A stretch of 64,000 nucleotides of DNA from Escherichia coli (GCF_044324785.1 NZ_CP172127.1); one strand, 5' to 3'. Positions 1 to 44,555 are shown, numbered from the stretch's first letter. Made by a program: numbers and translations. Notes: a model not told the origin generated them from the letters alone.

Positions 1-133
1 TGCCGGTTCCCGCGTCAGCGAAGCCAGAATCCCGGCGCTTCGCGAGCGGGCCAATGGCCTGTTATTGCAAGGGCAGTGGCTGGATGCCTCCATTCAACTC
101 ACTGGTGCGTTGGGCGGGGGTTACAAACGCTGA
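1..133 (+). CDS. mdtQ: 3' end of an outer-membrane efflux (OMF-type) protein gene, partial (starts before window)
   Basis: Open frame from window edge to TGA at 131-133; C-terminal residues ...LTGALGGGYKR; position upstream of yohF matches recalled E. coli synteny. Confidence 0.4.
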   Translation, partial: AGSRVSEARIPALRERANGLLLQGQWLDASIQLTGALGGGYKR

Positions 134-185
134 TGATATGCGCCTTCTATACTTAACGTTTATTCAGCGTTAAGTGGAGAACTCG

Positions 186-947
186 ATGGCACAGGTTGCG
201 ATTATTACCGCCTCCGATTCGGGGATCGGCAAAGAGTGCGCGTTATTACTGGCGCAGCAGGGGTTTGATATTGGTATTACCTGGCACTCAGATGAAGAAG
301 GGGCAAAAGATACCGCGCGTGAGGTAGTTAGCCACGGCGTACGTGCGGAGATCGTGCAACTGGATCTCGGCAATCTACCAGAAGGTGCGCAGGCGCTGGA
401 GAAACTGATTCAACGGCTGGGGCGTATTGATGTGCTGGTGAATAATGCGGGTGCAATGACCAAAGCGCCGTTTCTTGATATGGCTTTTGATGAGTGGCGC
501 AAGATTTTTACCGTTGATGTCGACGGTGCATTCTTATGCTCGCAAATTGCGGCCCGCCAGATGGTGAAACAAGGGCAGGGCGGTCGCATCATCAACATTA
601 CGTCGGTACATGAACATACGCCGCTGCCGGATGCCAGCGCCTACACAGCCGCTAAACATGCGCTCGGCGGGTTAACCAAAGCGATGGCGCTGGAGCTGGT
701 CAGGCATAAGATTTTGGTGAATGCGGTTGCACCTGGGGCGATCGCCACGCCAATGAACGGCATGGATGATGGCGACGTGAAGCCCGGCGCGGAGCCTTCG
801 ATTCCTCTGAGGCGTTTTGGCGCAACGCATGAGATTGCCAGCCTGGTAGCGTGGCTGTGCTCAGAGGGCGCAAATTACACCACCGGGCAGTCGTTGATAG
901 TGGATGGCGGCTTTATGTTGGCGAATCCGCAGTTCAACCCAGAATAG
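186..947 (+). CDS. yohF: Short-chain dehydrogenase/reductase family oxidoreductase
   Basis: ORF with ATG at 186 preceded by GGAGA (176-180); N-terminal glycine-rich Rossmann motif (ITASDSGIGKE); 253 aa, matches recalled YohF. Confidence 0.85.
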   Translation: MAQVAIITASDSGIGKECALLLAQQGFDIGITWHSDEEGAKDTAREVVSHGVRAEIVQLDLGNLPEGAQALEKLIQRLGRIDVLVNNAGAMTKAPFLDMAFDEWRKIFTVDVDGAFLCSQIAARQMVKQGQGGRIINITSVHEHTPLPDASAYTAAKHALGGLTKAMALELVRHKILVNAVAPGAIATPMNGMDDGDVKPGAEPSIPLRRFGATHEIASLVAWLCSEGANYTTGQSLIVDGGFMLANPQFNPE

Positions 948-980
948 CGCAGTGAGGTGCGTGGTTATTTCAATGGGTTA

Positions 981-1054
981 GGCCAGATAAGACACGCCAG
1001 CGTCGCATCAGGCATGGAACACTCGGTGCCGGATGTGGCGTGAATGCTTATCTG
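981..1054. repeat. REP/BIME-type palindromic repeats (two inverted REP units)
   Basis: ggccagataagacacgccagcgtcgcatcaggca and tgccggatgtggcgtgaatgcttatctg resemble enterobacterial REP consensus, in the intergenic gap between convergent yohF and yohD. Confidence 0.6.
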
Positions 1055-1065
1055 TGGCAACTGCT

Positions 1066-1644
1066 TTACGCTTGATTATCCGGCTTTTTCTTCCCGCGCC
1101 GTTTCAGCCACCAGCGCACGCCTACCACCAGAACCACGACCAGAATCAACCAGACCCAGTGCTTCAAATGCTGGTCGAGATTGTGCAACCATGGCGCAAT
1201 CACCTGACCACCAGCGTAACCGATAGTGGTAAAAATCAACGCCCAGGCAAATGCGCCGAGGATATTCAGTGGCAGAAAGATTTTCGGCGGCAGCTGGCTG
1301 GCACCAATCAGCGTCGGGCCAATCACCCGAAAGCCATACATAAAACGCGTACCAATGACAAACAGATACGGATGGCGCTGGATAAGTTTCTGCGCCCGCT
1401 CAATTTTATCCTGATGTTTCGAGAAACGGCGTAACAGCTTGCCGCCAAACCGCCGCCCGCACAGATAGAGCACCTGGTCGCCAATCATGCCGCCAAGCGC
1501 CACAGAAAGTACCACCAGCGGGAACTTTAATAGCCCCTGATGTGCCGCAACGCCTCCCAGCAAAGTCACGGTTTCACCTTCCGCCAGGCTACCGATCACC
1601 AGCGCGGCATAACCATATTGTGAGATGAGTGTATTGAGATCCAT
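1066..1644 (-). CDS. yohD: DedA/SNARE-associated family inner membrane protein
   Basis: ORF on minus strand; start chosen at internal ATG (1644) giving 192 aa (MDLNTLISQYGY...), hydrophobic membrane protein; track ORF begins 36 nt upstream. Confidence 0.8.
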   Translation of the reverse strand: MDLNTLISQYGYAALVIGSLAEGETVTLLGGVAAHQGLLKFPLVVLSVALGGMIGDQVLYLCGRRFGGKLLRRFSKHQDKIERAQKLIQRHPYLFVIGTRFMYGFRVIGPTLIGASQLPPKIFLPLNILGAFAWALIFTTIGYAGGQVIAPWLHNLDQHLKHWVWLILVVVLVVGVRWWLKRRGKKKPDNQA

Positions 1645-1813
1645 AGGCCAGTCTGTCTCCCTTTGGTTGCCTGTAAGCATACACCCTGTGAATCATTCAC
1701 GCTGAAAAAGGACGTACATCAGACGGTGCAAATTACATGGGCGAACAAAAAATAATCACAAGCTGGCTTATACTTGAACTGTCAGGTTCATGAACTCACA
1801 ACAAGGGGGCGGT

Positions 1814-2401
1814 ATGAGCCATGTCTGGGGACTGTTTTCCCATCCCGATCGTGAAATGCAGGTGATTAATCGCGAAAACGAAACGATTTCTCACCATTAC
1901 ACCCACCACGTTTTGCTGATGGCGGCGATTCCGGTGATTTGCGCCTTCATTGGCACCACACAAATTGGCTGGAATTTTGGCGATGGCACTATCCTGAAGT
2001 TATCCTGGTTTACCGGACTGGCGCTGGCTGTCTTGTTTTATGGCGTTATGCTGGCTGGGGTCGCGGTGATGGGGCGGGTCATCTGGTGGATGGCGCGCAA
2101 TTATCCGCAACGTCCATCACTTGCGCACTGCATGGTCTTCGCGGGCTACGTTGCAACTCCGCTGTTTTTAAGCGGTCTGGTGGCGCTTTATCCGCTGGTC
2201 TGGTTGTGTGCGCTGGTCGGCACGGTGGCGCTGTTTTACACCGGCTACCTGCTTTACCTCGGTATTCCGAGCTTCCTGAATATCAACAAAGAGGAAGGCC
2301 TTAGCTTCTCCAGTTCGACGTTGGCGATAGGCGTGCTGGTGCTGGAAGTGCTGCTCGCCCTTACCGTTATACTATGGGGTTACGGTTATCGTTTGTTCTA
2401 G
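1814..2401 (+). CDS. yohC: Yip1-family inner membrane protein
   Basis: ATG at 1814 follows AAGGGGG; 195 aa polytopic membrane protein (MSHVWGLFSHPDRE...). Confidence 0.8.
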   Translation: MSHVWGLFSHPDREMQVINRENETISHHYTHHVLLMAAIPVICAFIGTTQIGWNFGDGTILKLSWFTGLALAVLFYGVMLAGVAVMGRVIWWMARNYPQRPSLAHCMVFAGYVATPLFLSGLVALYPLVWLCALVGTVALFYTGYLLYLGIPSFLNINKEEGLSFSSSTLAIGVLVLEVLLALTVILWGYGYRLF

Positions 2402-2574
2402 AAAGTTCTTTTGTGTTGCATTGCTGGCGTAAATGTCAGCAATGCAGCATTTCCTCACGATTCTCCTTTGACGATCGCACTTTTTGCTCGTTATGATGGC
2501 GTCGCTAGCCTCAGTAAATCCTTACTCCGGCGGTGCGCAACCTGTGCGCGTGAACCACTATCTGAATGCTCATC

Positions 2575-3507
2575 ATGCCGAAATTTCGAGTTTCTTTATT
2601 TAGCCTGGCCCTGATGCTGGCTGTGCCTTTTGCACCGCAGGCCGTTGCGAAAACGGCAGCCGCTACCACCGCTTCACAGCCGGAAATTGCCTCCGGTAGC
2701 GCGATGATTGTTGATCTGAATACCAACAAAGTGATCTATTCGAACCACCCGGATCTGGTGCGTCCGATTGCGTCTATCAGCAAATTAATGACCGCGATGG
2801 TCGTGCTGGATGCGCGACTGCCGCTGGATGAAAAACTAAAAGTGGATATCAGCCAGACGCCGGAGATGAAAGGGGTCTATTCGCGCGTACGACTGAATAG
2901 CGAAATCAGCCGTAAAGATATGCTGTTGCTGGCGCTGATGTCTTCAGAAAACCGCGCGGCGGCAAGCCTTGCGCACCATTATCCCGGTGGTTACAAAGCC
3001 TTTATTAAGGCGATGAATGCGAAAGCGAAATCGCTCGGAATGAACAACACGCGCTTTGTTGAACCGACCGGATTGTCGGTGCATAACGTTTCAACCGCCC
3101 GTGACTTAACCAAACTGCTCATTGCCAGCAAACAATATCCGTTGATCGGGCAGTTAAGTACTACCCGGGAAGATATGGCAACCTTCTCTAACCCGACGTA
3201 TACGCTGCCGTTCCGCAATACTAATCATCTGGTGTATCGCGATAACTGGAATATCCAGCTAACCAAAACCGGCTTTACCAATGCGGCGGGCCATTGTCTG
3301 GTGATGCGTACGGTTATCAATAATAAACCGGTGGCGCTGGTAGTGATGGATGCGTTTGGCAAATATACCCATTTTGCCGATGCCAGCCGCCTGCGTACCT
3401 GGATTGAGACCGGTAAAGTGATGCCTGTTCCGGCAGCAGCGTTGAGCTATAAAAAACAAAAAGCCGCCCAGATGGCGGCGGCGGGGCAGACGGCGCAGAA
3501 CGATTAA
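2575..3507 (+). CDS. pbpG: D-alanyl-D-alanine endopeptidase (penicillin-binding protein 7)
   Basis: 310 aa with signal peptide ([25 protein letters not shown]), SxxK active-site context ([10 protein letters not shown]), SxN (SEN), KTG (KTGFT). Confidence 0.9.
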
Positions 3508-3518
3508 GTGAAGTACGG

Positions 3519-3541
3519 ATGGCGATACTCTGCCATCCGTA
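3519..3541. terminator. Bidirectional hairpin between convergent pbpG and dld
   Basis: Inverted repeat ggatggcgatactctgccatcc immediately after the pbpG stop and before the dld stop, followed by T-rich tract. Confidence 0.55.
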
Positions 3542-3545
3542 ATTT

Positions 3546-5261
3546 TTACTCCACTTCCTGCCAGTTTTTCCGCTTACTGGTTTTACCGATCCCCGGATTC
3601 ATACTGTTGGTCGGATCGTTCTCGCGATAAAACTTCTGCAACGTCTCCGGTGCTTTATACAAATGACCGACGTTATGCTCGGCAGGGTATTGCGCGCCGC
3701 GCTGCTGTAGCAGTTCCAGCATCTGTTCTTTCAACGCATGCACATCCACGCCTTTTTTAACGATGTAATCCTGATGGAAGACATAGCACATAAAATGGCC
3801 GTAATAGAGCTTGTGCACCAGTTGGCTGTCGATCTCCGGCGGTAAATGCTCATACCACTCGGTGTCGTTACGCCGCAGAGCGATATCCAGTGCCAGAATG
3901 TCTTCGACTTCATCGGAATGCACCGCCTGATAACGAATTGCTGCGCCCGCAGCGGCGAAACGGTGTAAAAACGCTTTGCTACCTTCCTCCGGCGTACAGA
4001 CAAAGAAATCGCCTTCGGCCTGTTTGAAATAATCCACCAGCCACGATTTGGCTTCACCGACGCCATCGCCCGCCATTTTTAACAGCAGATGATGTTCGTA
4101 TTTATCGCGCCAGTTTTTCATGCGCGGCGGTAAATGGCTGGGGAACAGGTGACCGAATTTTTGCATCGCACGGTCGGTAAAATGCGGACGGAAGAATTTC
4201 ACTTTCTCCAGCATCGCATCGGTGCGCCCCTTGAGATTAAAGAAGAACGGCATCTTGTCGGTGCCTAACTTATCAATCATCAGGAAGGTGTCTTTGCCGT
4301 ATTTTTCCGCAATATCGTAGATATCCCGGTGCATATATTCCCCGGCAACCGGCAGATTTTCGAAATTAGCCAGAATATGACGGCGGATTTCTGTCAGTAC
4401 TTCCGGCTGGTTGGTGCCGATATAAAACACCTGCTGATTTTTTTCCGCTTCGAAGGTATCAAGACGTACCGCAAAGACGGCCAGCTTCCCGGCGCAACCA
4501 GAAGATTCAAATAACCGATCCGGATCGGCGTTATAACGTGCGGGCGTGTCGGCTTCAATATCACGAACGCGGTGGACATAGTCATAATCGTGGGCGTGAC
4601 GACCATCGTGGCGCACATCGTCATCTTTGATGCGATCGTCATCCAGCTTGCTAAGGATCTGCTCCGGCGTTTCGCCCAGATCAATCCCCAGATGGTTCAC
4701 CAGCGTCAGTTTGCCGTCTTCATTTATACGCGCGAATAACGACATTTCGGTATACGCCGGGCCACGCTGCACCAGCGAGCCGCCGGAGTTGTTACAAATA
4801 CCGCCGATGACCGATGCGCCTATACACGATGATCCAATCACCGAGTGCGGTTCGCGTCCCAGCGGTTTGAGGGCTTTTTCCAGCGAATAAAGCGTGGTGC
4901 CCGGGTAGGCCAGCACCTGTTCGCCCTTGCCGAGAACGTGCAGCTTGTCGAGACGCAGGGTGCTGATGATCACGATATCGCGATCATAGTCGTTACCGTT
5001 TGGCGTCGATCCTTCGGTCAGGCCTGTATTGGCAGCCTGCATCAGAATAATTTTGTCGGCGGTGACGCAGGCTTTCAGCACCCGCCACAATTCCAGTAGT
5101 GAGCCAGGGAAAACGACAGCCAGCGCGTCGCCCTGACCAGAACGGAAGCCCTTGCGATAGCGGGCCGTTTTTGCGGGATCGGTGAGCAGGTGTGAATGAC
5201 CGACCAGACGGGCAAGTTCATTCAAAAAGGCTTTATTATCAGTTGTTGTCATGGAAGACAT
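3546..5261 (-). CDS. dld: FAD-dependent D-lactate dehydrogenase (membrane-associated)
   Basis: 571 aa from MSSMTTTDNKAFLNELARLVGHSHLL...; strong recollection of E. coli Dld sequence and length. Confidence 0.9.
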   Translation of the reverse strand: MSSMTTTDNKAFLNELARLVGHSHLLTDPAKTARYRKGFRSGQGDALAVVFPGSLLELWRVLKACVTADKIILMQAANTGLTEGSTPNGNDYDRDIVIISTLRLDKLHVLGKGEQVLAYPGTTLYSLEKALKPLGREPHSVIGSSCIGASVIGGICNNSGGSLVQRGPAYTEMSLFARINEDGKLTLVNHLGIDLGETPEQILSKLDDDRIKDDDVRHDGRHAHDYDYVHRVRDIEADTPARYNADPDRLFESSGCAGKLAVFAVRLDTFEAEKNQQVFYIGTNQPEVLTEIRRHILANFENLPVAGEYMHRDIYDIAEKYGKDTFLMIDKLGTDKMPFFFNLKGRTDAMLEKVKFFRPHFTDRAMQKFGHLFPSHLPPRMKNWRDKYEHHLLLKMAGDGVGEAKSWLVDYFKQAEGDFFVCTPEEGSKAFLHRFAAAGAAIRYQAVHSDEVEDILALDIALRRNDTEWYEHLPPEIDSQLVHKLYYGHFMCYVFHQDYIVKKGVDVHALKEQMLELLQQRGAQYPAEHNVGHLYKAPETLQKFYRENDPTNSMNPGIGKTSKRKNWQEVE

Positions 5262-40950: not shown

Positions 40951-40977
40951 CCCCCTCATGATGAGGGGGCTTTTCTT
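40951..40977 (+). terminator. Rho-independent terminator after yehA
   Basis: ccccctcat-g-atgaggggg followed by cttttctt. Confidence 0.7.
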
Positions 40978-41314
40978 AGCGATGATAAAAAATCTCACCG
41001 TCGTAGGCTTTAATGATTTTACCGTCGGTGTCGCTGATCAACACGTATGCGCCACCCATATAGGTCCAGTGCGTTCCGGCATCAGGCGCGGGCAGATTAC
41101 GTAACTGCCACTGCTTAATGTTGTACTCATCGGTGCGGTACATCTCTGGGACGGTATCGCCTGGTTTGAAATGCTTAAAGTCAGCAATGAAACTGCTTAA
41201 CTCATACTTAGAAATTCCCGAGGTATTGGTCGAACCCGCGGTGGCTGGTGCGGCCCAGGCGGCACTGGTAACCAGCAAAAGCACACCCAGCAACATCTTA
41301 TTTTTAATGGTCAT
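40976..41314 (-). CDS. rcnB: Periplasmic nickel/cobalt homeostasis protein
   Basis: 112 aa from MTIKNKMLLGVLLLVTSAAWA; track ORF extends 180 nt upstream. Confidence 0.8.
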   Translation of the reverse strand: MTIKNKMLLGVLLLVTSAAWAAPATAGSTNTSGISKYELSSFIADFKHFKPGDTVPEMYRTDEYNIKQWQLRNLPAPDAGTHWTYMGGAYVLISDTDGKIIKAYDGEIFYHR

Positions 41315-41532
41315 AAACTCTCCACTTTGGGGATCTGTAATATCAGTCGCATATCTTTCCTGCCATACAATATAACTGACAAGCGATATTTTGTTAGTGA
41401 TCCCATGATTTCGTAAAAAGTGTAAATGAAAGGATGCCCTAAAAGCATCCTTAGCGAGCAGAGAGTCAGCGGAAATAGCTGATTTAAGAATCATCCTGGG
41501 CTGAAGATAACATGCAAGCCTAAAGGATTGAG

Positions 41533-42354
41533 TTATCGCATTATGCCCATAAAGCCATGCACACCCATATACACACCAACTAAGCCAATCAACAGACTGG
41601 AAAAATAGGGGGCGCGTTTAGCGAGAGTGTTAAATCCGCTCCAACGTTTTGCGACCTGCTGAACGCTGATTGCTGCGCCAACGCCTACGGTGACCAGCGT
41701 TAACGCCAGGCCGATGCTGAAACTGACGACCAGTGTTGCGCCCAGTGTCAGGGCTTTCAACTGAATGCAAATCAACAGCACGGTAATTGCTGCCGGGCAG
41801 GGGATAAGGCCACCGGTTAAGCCAAATAACAAAATTTGCCAGTTGGTGACCTCTCTACCATCAAAGCGTCGTTTAATGTCATTGGCATGGGCTCGTGCAT
41901 GAGCATCCTGATACTCCCCATGTTCGTGATGGTGATGATGTCCATGGTCGTGGTGATCTTCGTGATCGTGATGATGCTCATGATCATGCCCGTGCATATT
42001 CTCCAGCCAGTTGCGTTCGCCGCGCCAGGTACGCCAGAACATCCAGAACGCGGTGCCAATAATGATCACCGCGGAAATCAACTGGAGCCACGGTTCCGCC
42101 GACTGCGCAGTAAAGCGTTTGCTGATCACCATCCCGCCAAAGGCAATCAACCAGACCACTGCGGTATGCGAAATGGTTGCTGCCAGTCCGAGCATCACCG
42201 CCTGTTTAATGGTGCCTTTGATGGCGATGATAAACGCCGCCATCATCGTTTTTGAGTGCCCTGGTTCCAGGCCATGAAGCGCACCAAGTAAGATGGCGCT
42301 GGGGATGAAGAACCAGGCGTTTCCTTGCTGAAGAAGAGTGGTAAATTCGGTCAT
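41533..42354 (-). CDS. rcnA: Nickel/cobalt efflux permease with histidine-rich loop
   Basis: 273 aa membrane protein; HGHDHEHHHDHEDHHDHGHHHHHEHGEYQDAHARAH loop. Confidence 0.9.
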   Translation of the reverse strand: MTEFTTLLQQGNAWFFIPSAILLGALHGLEPGHSKTMMAAFIIAIKGTIKQAVMLGLAATISHTAVVWLIAFGGMVISKRFTAQSAEPWLQLISAVIIIGTAFWMFWRTWRGERNWLENMHGHDHEHHHDHEDHHDHGHHHHHEHGEYQDAHARAHANDIKRRFDGREVTNWQILLFGLTGGLIPCPAAITVLLICIQLKALTLGATLVVSFSIGLALTLVTVGVGAAISVQQVAKRWSGFNTLAKRAPYFSSLLIGLVGVYMGVHGFMGIMR

Positions 42355-42390
42355 GATAATAATTCTTAGTATTAATTCGGCAATCCGATT

Positions 42391-42425
42391 CTACTCCCCC
42401 CCAGTACCTGATACTACCCCCCAGT
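42391..42425. promoter_or_regulatory. Two RcnR operator sites in rcnR-rcnA divergent intergenic region
   Basis: tactcccccccagta (42391-42405) and tactacccccagta-type site (42411-42425): TACT-G/C6-N-AGTA inverted repeats. Confidence 0.75.
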
Positions 42426-42474
42426 AGATTAATAGTGCTATGATTTTTCATGTTCTTGTTAACCAGGTGTTGCC

Positions 42475-42747
42475 ATGTCTCATACCATCCGTGATAAACA
42501 GAAACTGAAAGCGCGTGCCAGTAAGATTCAGGGCCAGGTCGTGGCGCTCAAGAAAATGCTCGACGAGCCGCACGAATGCGCTGCAGTTTTACAACAGATT
42601 GCTGCTATCCGTGGCGCGGTAAACGGTCTGATGCGGGAAGTGATTAAAGGTCATCTGACGGAACACATCGTTCACCAGGGGGATGAGCTAAAACGTGAAG
42701 AAGATCTGGATGTCGTTCTGAAGGTGCTGGATTCTTATATCAAATAA
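42475..42747 (+). CDS. rcnR: Ni/Co-responsive transcriptional repressor (CsoR/RcnR family)
   Basis: 90 aa ([42 protein letters not shown]...). Confidence 0.9.
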
Positions 42748-42844
42748 TTTATTAACGCGATTGTAAAACTGCGGTTTTTACTCGTTTACAACGCGTGCGC
42801 TGGACATTACCATCCTCCTCTGCGATTTATCATCGCAACCAAAC

Positions 42845-42969
42845 GACTCGGGGTGCCCTTCTGCGTGAAGGCTGAGAAATACCCGTATCACCTGATCTGG
42901 ATAATGCCAGCGTAGGGAAGTCACGGACCACCAGGTCATTGCTTCTTCACGTTATGGCAGGAGCAAACT
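42845..42969 (+). promoter_or_regulatory. TPP (THI-box) riboswitch in thiM leader
   Basis: ggggtgcccttctgcgtgaaggctgagaaatacccgtatcacctgatctggataatgccagcgtagggaagtc matches the classic thiM aptamer including CUGAGA. Confidence 0.9.
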
Positions 42970-43758
42970 ATGCAAGTCGACCTGCTGAGTTCCGCGCAAT
43001 CTGCGCACGCGTTACACCTTTTTCACCAACATTCCCCTCTTGTGCACTGCATGACCAACGATGTGGTGCAAACCTTTACTGCCAATACCTTGCTGGCGCT
43101 CGGTGCATCGCCAGCGATGGTTATCGAAACCGAAGAGGCCAGTCAGTTTGCGGCTATCGCCAGTGCGTTGCTGATTAACGTTGGCACGCTGACGCAGCCA
43201 CGCGCACAGGCGATGCGTGCCGCCGTTGAACAGGCAAAACGCTCTCAAACACCCTGGACGCTTGATCCAGTAGCGGTTGGTGCACTCGACTATCGCCGCC
43301 GTTTTTGTCTGGAACTTCTGTCTCATAAGCCAACCGCCATACGTGGTAATGCTTCGGAAATCATGGCATTAGCTGGCATTGCTAATGGCGGACGGGGAGT
43401 GGATACCACTGACGCCGCAGCTAATGCGATACCCGCTGCACAAACACTGGCACGGGAAACTGGCGCAATCGTCGTGGTCACAGGCGAGGTGGATTATGTT
43501 ACCGATGGTCGTCGCACCGTTGTCATTCACGGTGGCGATCCGCTAATGACCAAAGTGGTAGGAACTGGCTGTGCATTATCGGCGGTTGTCGCTGCCTGTT
43601 GTACGCTACCAGGCGATACGCTGGAAAATATCGCATCTGCCTGTCACTGGATGAAACAAGCCGGAGAACGCGCAGTCGCCAGTAGCGAGGGGCCAGGCAG
43701 TTTTGTTCCACATTTCCTTGATGCGCTCTGGCAATTGACGCCGGAGGTGCAGGCATGA
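42970..43758 (+). CDS. thiM: Hydroxyethylthiazole kinase
   Basis: 262 aa ([30 protein letters not shown]...). Confidence 0.9.
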
Positions 43759-44555
43759 AACGAATTAACGCTCTGACGATTGCCGGTACTGATCCGAGTG
43801 GTGGTGCGGGGATTCAGGCCGATCTTAAAACCTTCTCGGCACTTGGCGCTTATGGTTGCTCAGTGATTACTGCACTGGTGGCGCAAAATACCCGTGGCGT
43901 ACAGTCGGTGTATCGCATTGAGCCTGATTTTGTCGCCGCCCAGCTCGATTCGGTGTTCAGCGATGTGCGAATCGACACCACTAAAATCGGTATGTTGGCG
44001 GAAACCGATATTGTTGAAGCGGTGGCAGAACGGTTGCAACGTTATCAGATCCAAAACGTGGTACTCGACACCGTTATGCTGGCAAAAAGCGGCGACCCAC
44101 TGCTTTCACCTTCGGCAGTTGCCACGCTACGCAGTCGATTATTGCCACAGGTTTCATTAATAACGCCAAACTTGCCCGAAGCAGCCGCCTTGCTCGACGC
44201 GCCACACGCGCGCACCGAACAGGAAATGCTGGAACAAGGGCGATCGCTGTTGGCGATGGGCTGTGGAGCAGTGCTAATGAAAGGTGGTCATCTGGATGAT
44301 GAGCAAAGCCCGGACTGGCTGTTTACCCGCGAGGGTGAACAACGGTTTACCGCACCGCGCATTATGACCCAAAACACCCACGGCACTGGTTGTACACTCT
44401 CTGCGGCGTTGGCTGCACTACGCCCGCGCCATACAAACTGGGCTGACACCGTACAGGAGGCAAAAAGCTGGCTTTCATCGGCGTTAGCCCAGGCCGACAC
44501 GCTGGAAGTTGGTCACGGTATTGGTCCGGTTCACCACTTCCACGCGTGGTGGTGA
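43755..44555 (+). CDS. thiD: Hydroxymethylpyrimidine / phosphomethylpyrimidine kinase
   Basis: 266 aa ([27 protein letters not shown]...); ATGA overlap with thiM. Confidence 0.9.

Follow-up and report, generated by a model that had tools for sequence, protein, structure and literature searches.

Between two divergent genes in an Escherichia coli genome (GCF_044324785.1, NZ_CP172127.1) lie two short sites of the form TACT-G6-N-AGTA, and the product of one of these genes carries a long run of histidine, aspartate and glutamate residues whose codons coincide with open reading frames on the opposite strand. The question raised by this locus is whether the two sites are the operators of the nickel- and cobalt-responsive repressor RcnR, how they would be placed relative to the promoters of the genes on either side, and which of the overlapping reading frames encodes a protein. 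A sequence-only reading had named the genes rcnA and rcnR and described the sites and the histidine run; here we follow up those claims within the window, by which we mean the whole 64,000-nt stretch analysed, with positions counted from its first letter.

The rcnR-rcnAB divergon is known to be autoregulated (PMC7689651), and the title of Blaha et al. 2011 describes a shared operator that represses both genes. The mechanism by which RcnA confers resistance is not fully understood; the protein may act as an exporter, or as a chelator by way of its loop (PMC11247825). The rcn operator has also found use in synthetic circuits induced by cobalt (PMC7105576).

Results

Within positions 40976-44555 the order of elements is rcnB, rcnA, an intergenic gap, rcnR, a TPP riboswitch, thiM and thiD. 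On the minus strand, rcnA (41533-42354, 273 aa) encodes a nickel/cobalt efflux membrane protein that matches the NicO family (PF03824) over residues 13-272, the full-length membrane domain, with an E-value of 9.4e-70, and that scores 557 bits against NCBIfam NF007454 (cut-off 195). Downstream of it and in the same direction lies rcnB (40976-41314, minus), which encodes the periplasmic accessory protein (PF11776, E 8e-19) and carries the RefSeq name rcnB; a 172-aa ORF at 40976-41494 (minus) is an over-extended form of this gene, for which the annotated, K-12-equivalent start at 41314 gives 112 aa. The divergent rcnR (42475-42747, plus) encodes a 90-aa Ni(II)/Co(II)-responsive repressor that scores 75.8 bits against PF02583 (cut-off 22.8) and 197.3 bits against the NCBIfam RcnR equivalog model (cut-off 138), and the model of its paralogue FrmR gives 76.5 bits, below its own cut-off of 133. 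The residues that we take to be the metal-ligand fingerprint of RcnR (His3, Cys35, His60 and His64) are all present in the translation.

Two further elements were observed in this neighborhood. The TPP riboswitch upstream of thiM-thiD (42839-42935, plus) scores 71 bits in Rfam RF00059 (cut-off 54) and is annotated identically in RefSeq E. coli genomes. In the 218 nt separating the stop of rcnA from the start of rcnB, a 10-bp hairpin, AAGGAUGCUU-UUA-GGGCAUCCUU, occupies 41430-41452 (minus) and is followed by a moderately U-rich stretch. The hairpin was not among the hits of a terminator scan; it might terminate transcription partially, or act in the processing or stability of the rcnAB transcript.

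A homologous 1.6-kb segment occurs in 5,417 of 5,426 complete E. coli genomes, labelled rcnB, rcnA, rcnR and riboswitch by RefSeq, and in K-12 MG1655 (NC_000913.3) the genes rcnR (b2105), rcnA (b2106) and rcnB (b2107) have the order and orientation seen in the window. RcnR is 100% identical to b2105 and RcnB differs from its K-12 counterpart by one substitution. RcnA has 273 residues as compared to 274 in K-12, the differences being one histidine fewer together with Y124H and H133D (window numbering) in the histidine-rich loop, and S100G as the sole change outside it. The intergenic region measures 120 bp in both genomes, with 118 of the 120 positions identical, and is at least 95% identical in 5,358 of 5,360 E. 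coli genomes. We thus conclude that this stretch is very probably (a probability of about 0.95, judged from sequence and homology) the chromosomal rcnR / rcnA-rcnB nickel-cobalt efflux switch of E. coli, and we found no sequence feature that contradicts this reading.

Both operator sites fall inside the 120-bp gap (42355-42474) between the divergent genes, as had been claimed, and their existence is confirmed; however, the positions first given for them, 42391-42405 and 42411-42425, are each one base too far to the left. Site 1, nearest rcnA, occupies 42392-42406, and site 2, nearest rcnR, occupies 42412-42426, with a 5-nt spacer (CCTGA on the plus strand, 42407-42411) between them and a centre-to-centre distance of 20 bp. 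Their plus-strand sequences are TACTCCCCCCCAGTA and TACTACCCCCCAGTA; read along the minus strand, the sense strand of rcnA, they are TACTGGGGGGGAGTA and TACTGGGGGGTAGTA, each an exact instance of TACT-G6-N-AGTA. The two sites and the spacer match base for base those of K-12, in which the sites have been characterised experimentally, and the two intergenic substitutions lie outside the sites. The form TACT-G/C6-N-AGTA, given in the sequence-only reading, agrees with the consensus, and the tandem layout with the arrangement, found in published descriptions (PMC7055735, PMC3902906, PMC7105576), the first two of which cite Iwig & Chivers 2009 for the tandem RcnR operator of K-12.

Chance does not explain these matches. 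The exact pattern occurred in none of 100 dinucleotide-preserving shuffles, and with up to two mismatches allowed the window holds just sites 1 and 2, where 0.14 matches would be expected. No further copy of the looser pattern TACT-N7-AGTA is present in the 64 kb, and a search for a third or weak operator at up to five mismatches across the window returned none, the sole extra match being a shifted overlap of site 1.

To see the operator against a wider background, we scanned one genome per species, 100,044 species in all, for two copies of TACT-N-G5-N-AGTA separated by a gap of 3-8 nt. The tandem pair was found at 87 loci, in Enterobacterales, Vibrio, Shewanella, Chromobacterium, Silvimonas, Paraburkholderia and Thalassolituus. 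At 84 of these loci the start of an RcnR homologue is no more than 200 nt from the pair, and at the other three the operator lies about 135 nt or less from the end of the fetched stretch; the identity of these homologues to RcnR falls as low as 58-62%, and in one case to 36%. A divergent RcnA homologue starts within 250 nt at 78 of the 87 loci, most often at a distance of 35-43 nt from the rcnA-proximal site. The two site variants keep their order in nearly all of the loci, the exact 15-mer TACTGGGGGGGAGTA being the rcnA-proximal site in 79 and the exact 15-mer TACTGGGGGGTAGTA the rcnR-proximal site in 82. Most spacers between the sites are 5 nt long (69 loci), the others being 6 nt (16 loci) or 8 nt (2 loci), and their sequence varies; judged across these loci, the length of the spacer is kept and its sequence is not. 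The same is seen in a copy on an IncHI2 plasmid of Enterobacter hormaechei, whose RcnR is 92% identical: both 15-mers and the 5-nt spacer length are retained, so that 30 of 30 bases agree with the window within the sites as compared to 43 of 92 outside them, and the spacer sequence differs. Conservation across 87 species argues strongly, and independently, that the pair functions as an operator linked to rcnR and rcnA.

Several loci depart from the common arrangement. In 13 loci of Enterobacter, Klebsiella and Lelliottia (L021, L033, L039, L055, L057, L060, L062, L063, L064, L078, L087, L088 and L091) there is a third site, TACTCCCCC[T/G]GAGTA, 21 bp past the rcnR-proximal one, its G tract carried by the opposite strand. 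Each of these loci also has a spacer of 6 nt and an RcnR that shares about 62% identity with that of the window; their arrangement is one of three sites at 21-bp spacing, as compared to two at 20 bp in the window. In Paraburkholderia atlantica (L085) the pair TACTAGGGGGCAGTA ... TACTTGGGGGGAGTA, with an 8-nt spacer, lies 20 nt from a repressor 36% identical to RcnR, and no RcnA homologue is nearby; this seems to be a similar operator design used by a distant family member for a different target gene. A Ralstonia megaplasmid whose RcnR is 62% identical has one good site, TACTAGGGGGGAGTA; its degenerate neighbor, matching at 11 of 15 positions by eye, was not counted as a second.

Variants also occur within E. 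coli. In strain SY3626 (L009) the tract of site 1 is C9 rather than C7, which could be a homopolymer assembly error, and an IS1 element overlaps the 3' end of rcnR; in strain N96 (L010) site 1 reads TACTCCCCCCTAGTA, and hence has its variable base on the other side of the tract; and in strain 81EVA (H80) an IS3-family element interrupts rcnA. In O157:H7 FRIK2533 (L005) and in strain 08-3918 (L006), the neighbor of rcnR is a gene labelled 'outer membrane protein' on the opposite strand rather than the riboswitch and thiM, so the right-hand neighborhood differs in this lineage.

The placement of the promoters is less direct. Because a consensus sigma-70 scan over the operators gave no strong match, the -10 elements proposed here are derived from cross-species conservation, and a literature search for mapped rcnA or rcnR transcription starts returned nothing usable. 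Among 83 distinct species contexts, the most conserved flank is GAAT directly beyond the outer AGTA, on both sides of the pair. On the rcnA side this gives TAGAAT in 41 of the 83 contexts, and most of the other variants listed fit TAnnnT; on the rcnR side, TGnTAnnnT lies at a constant offset from the rcnR-proximal site across species, and the IncHI2 plasmid copy carries TGGTATAGT at that position. In the window, the putative -10 of the rcnA promoter would be TAGAAT at 42388-42393 (minus), overlapping the outer AGTA half of site 1, and the putative extended -10 of the rcnR promoter would be TGCTATGAT at 42436-42444 (plus), 10 nt past site 2. If these assignments are right, site 1 would fall where the rcnA promoter has its spacer and -10 element, and site 2 where the rcnR promoter has its -35 element and spacer, a layout that fits the published account of a single shared operator repressing both genes. 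The sole hit of the sigma-70 scan within the gap, TTGCCG-16-TATTAT, is unlikely to be the rcnA promoter; its end is 2 nt short of the rcnA ATG, and the scan gave as many hits in all as it does in shuffled sequence.

The run of histidine, aspartate and glutamate residues in RcnA, previously estimated at about 35 residues, is real and spans 36 (residues 121-156, HGHDHEHHHDHEDHHDHGHHHHHEHGEYQDAHARAH; 41887-41994, minus), delimited by composition. It contains 18 histidines, 5 aspartates and 4 glutamates, or 75% of the total, and the figure rises to 92% in a 25-residue core (residues 121-145; 41920-41994, minus). The loop lies within a hydrophilic segment of about 65 residues (109-173) with hydrophobic blocks on either side, and the borders of this segment are rich in arginine and lysine (WRTWRGER... 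and ...KRRFDGRE), so by the positive-inside rule a cytoplasmic location would fit. RcnA of E. coli has been described as having a central, predicted-cytoplasmic, histidine-rich loop with 17 histidines (PMC11247825), as compared to the 18 in the window.

Length is the variable property of this loop. A 301-nt query across it matched 5,363 genomes, of which 7 were at least 99% identical and 655 less than 95% identical, making the window-like allele rare. Of 60 E. coli genomes sampled at even spacing, about 50 had the K-12 length, 3 nt longer than the window, and the other length differences were +18, -18, +24, +30, +36 and +60 nt. The translated RcnA proteins of nine loci are between 267 and 293 aa long; of some 219 residues in the flanks, 217-219 are identical, and the change in length is confined to His-Asp and His-Glu runs; the longest allele, that of strain 08-3918, holds 15 copies of a 6-nt unit. 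The window loop contains no clean tandem array: Tandem Repeats Finder shows only weak arrays with periods of 18, 9 and 6 nt, 66-75% matches and scores of 31-76.

The likely explanation for these differences, in our judgment, is neutral slippage of an imperfect codon repeat, with the 273-aa allele as one rare variant. Every length difference is a multiple of 3 nt, from -18 and +3 up to +60; the differences map to the His-Asp and His-Glu dipeptide runs; the array of 15 units in strain 08-3918 and the degenerate, low-scoring repeat of the window both agree with such a process, as does the similar CACGAC repeat of Salmonella yohM, the established typing locus STTR5 (PMC5183578, PMC1781188). However, in Salmonella the directional mutability toward mid-range alleles has been read as functional constraint (PMC5183578), and slippage accounts for the variation only, being compatible with the rcnR/rcnA-rcnB switch. 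One could alternatively envision that loop length tunes the capacity or selectivity of nickel and cobalt export across E. coli lineages and is thus non-neutral, in which case the rare allele of the window would reflect a distinct metal environment; we consider this quite improbable.

A related possibility is that the loop serves mainly as a metal sink, giving tolerance through chelation of nickel and cobalt on the cytoplasmic face and not through a part in transport, with a binding capacity set by its length. The literature allows RcnA to be either an exporter or a loop chelator, and the free variation in loop length, beside a remainder conserved at 99-100%, fits the loose structural constraints of such a role. 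Nevertheless, the membrane part of the protein is a strongly conserved, full-length match to a transporter family. A single loop per protein would also buffer little compared with efflux. Sink and transport are not mutually exclusive, but as the main function of the loop we find chelation doubtful.

The histidine codons of the loop also bear on how the opposite strand is annotated. The longest of the antisense ORFs (41836-42255, plus; 139 aa) lies in exact complement register with rcnA codons 34-173, so that the 18 loop histidine codons (11 CAT and 7 CAC) become ATG and GTG and are read as methionine and valine, as in MFVMVMMSMVVVIFVIVMMLMIMPV; over the whole loop the antisense reading is MGSCMSILILPMFVMVMMSMVVVIFVIVMMLMIMPV. 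Because the complements of histidine, aspartate and glutamate codons are never stops, this frame is open over the loop automatically. The proposal that the histidine codons generate the antisense ORFs is therefore right as to mechanism, but it explains only part of the longest one, in which the loop makes up 108 of 420 nt and the remainder is open for other reasons.

Could this ORF encode a real, small, hydrophobic protein rich in methionine and valine? Its length of 139 codons and the marked hydrophobicity that the part complementary to the loop would have are in favor. Against this, it has no Pfam or NCBIfam match, and its openness over the loop needs no coding function. Two K-12 changes, TTG to TTA and TCG to TCA, are synonymous for rcnA but introduce stops into the antisense frame, shortening the longest open stretch from 141 codons to 91. 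Among nine E. coli loci, with the mis-registered C-terminal block of one (L008) left out of the counts, substitutions were 20 synonymous to 3 non-synonymous in the rcnA frame as compared to 8 to 15 in the antisense frame. From the missing family match, the K-12 stops and the substitution pattern we conclude that the ORF is spurious, as the sequence-only reading had held, and give a real antisense protein almost no credence. Two more of the listed ORFs overlap the loop, one on either strand, and neither has an NCBIfam match.

Discussion

Taken together with published work, these features suggest how the switch would operate. From the literature we take the binding stoichiometry, the contacts in the groove, the shape of the DNA, the release by metal and the autoregulation. 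In this account, when metal is not in excess, metal-free RcnR tetramers would occupy the two tandem TACT-G6-N-AGTA sites, which are of type 1, one tetramer per site, contacting the TACT/AGTA inverted repeats and the minor groove, with the unbroken G tract imposing an A-form-like shape on the DNA. To this the present analysis contributes the sequence features themselves, their identity to K-12 and their conservation beside rcnR and rcnA homologues in many species. Because the sites would overlap or abut core elements of both divergent promoters, if the putative promoter elements are correct, rcnAB and rcnR would be repressed together. A rise in cytoplasmic Ni(II) or Co(II) is reported to lead to metal binding by RcnR and its departure from the DNA, whereupon both promoters would fire, and RcnA and periplasmic RcnB would lower the cytoplasmic metal. 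The histidine-, aspartate- and glutamate-rich loop of RcnA, if cytoplasmic as its borders suggest, most likely captures metal and so feeds or gates the transporter.

The locus, with its operators and its histidine-rich loop, is already known, ordinary and well studied, and as the textbook nickel/cobalt efflux switch of E. coli it has little significance beyond correct annotation. What is added here is, first, a corrected set of coordinates for both operator sites; second, a comparative footprint in which a tandem operator is nearly invariant over 87 species and its surroundings have diverged; and third, an account of how runs of histidine codons yield long, stop-free antisense frames rich in ATG and GTG that are then reported by ORF finders.

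In-frame repeat variation in rcnA within E. coli is real but not new in kind. In Salmonella enterica yohM, which is the same gene as rcnA, STTR5 is a His-Asp hexanucleotide repeat in the loop-coding part whose copy number varies among strains. O157-type alleles of E. coli have runs comparable to it, whereas the loop of the window is short and imperfect.

RcnR itself belongs to the DUF156 (PF02583) family together with FrmR, InrS and CsoR. A sequence search of solved structures found no chain with the sequence of RcnR; its best matches were FrmR (5lcy, 5lbm), InrS (5fmn) and several CsoRs. For RcnA the search by sequence found no solved structure, and its hits were to the histidine-rich tails of unrelated proteins (e.g., cobaltochelatase), which we set aside as low-complexity artefacts. 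FrmR, InrS and CsoR respond to formaldehyde, nickel and copper, respectively, and their operators differ from that of RcnR. The RcnR site, as published, is a G/C tract of 6-7 bp within a TACT/AGTA inverted repeat, present in tandem, and the two sites of the window have this same design.
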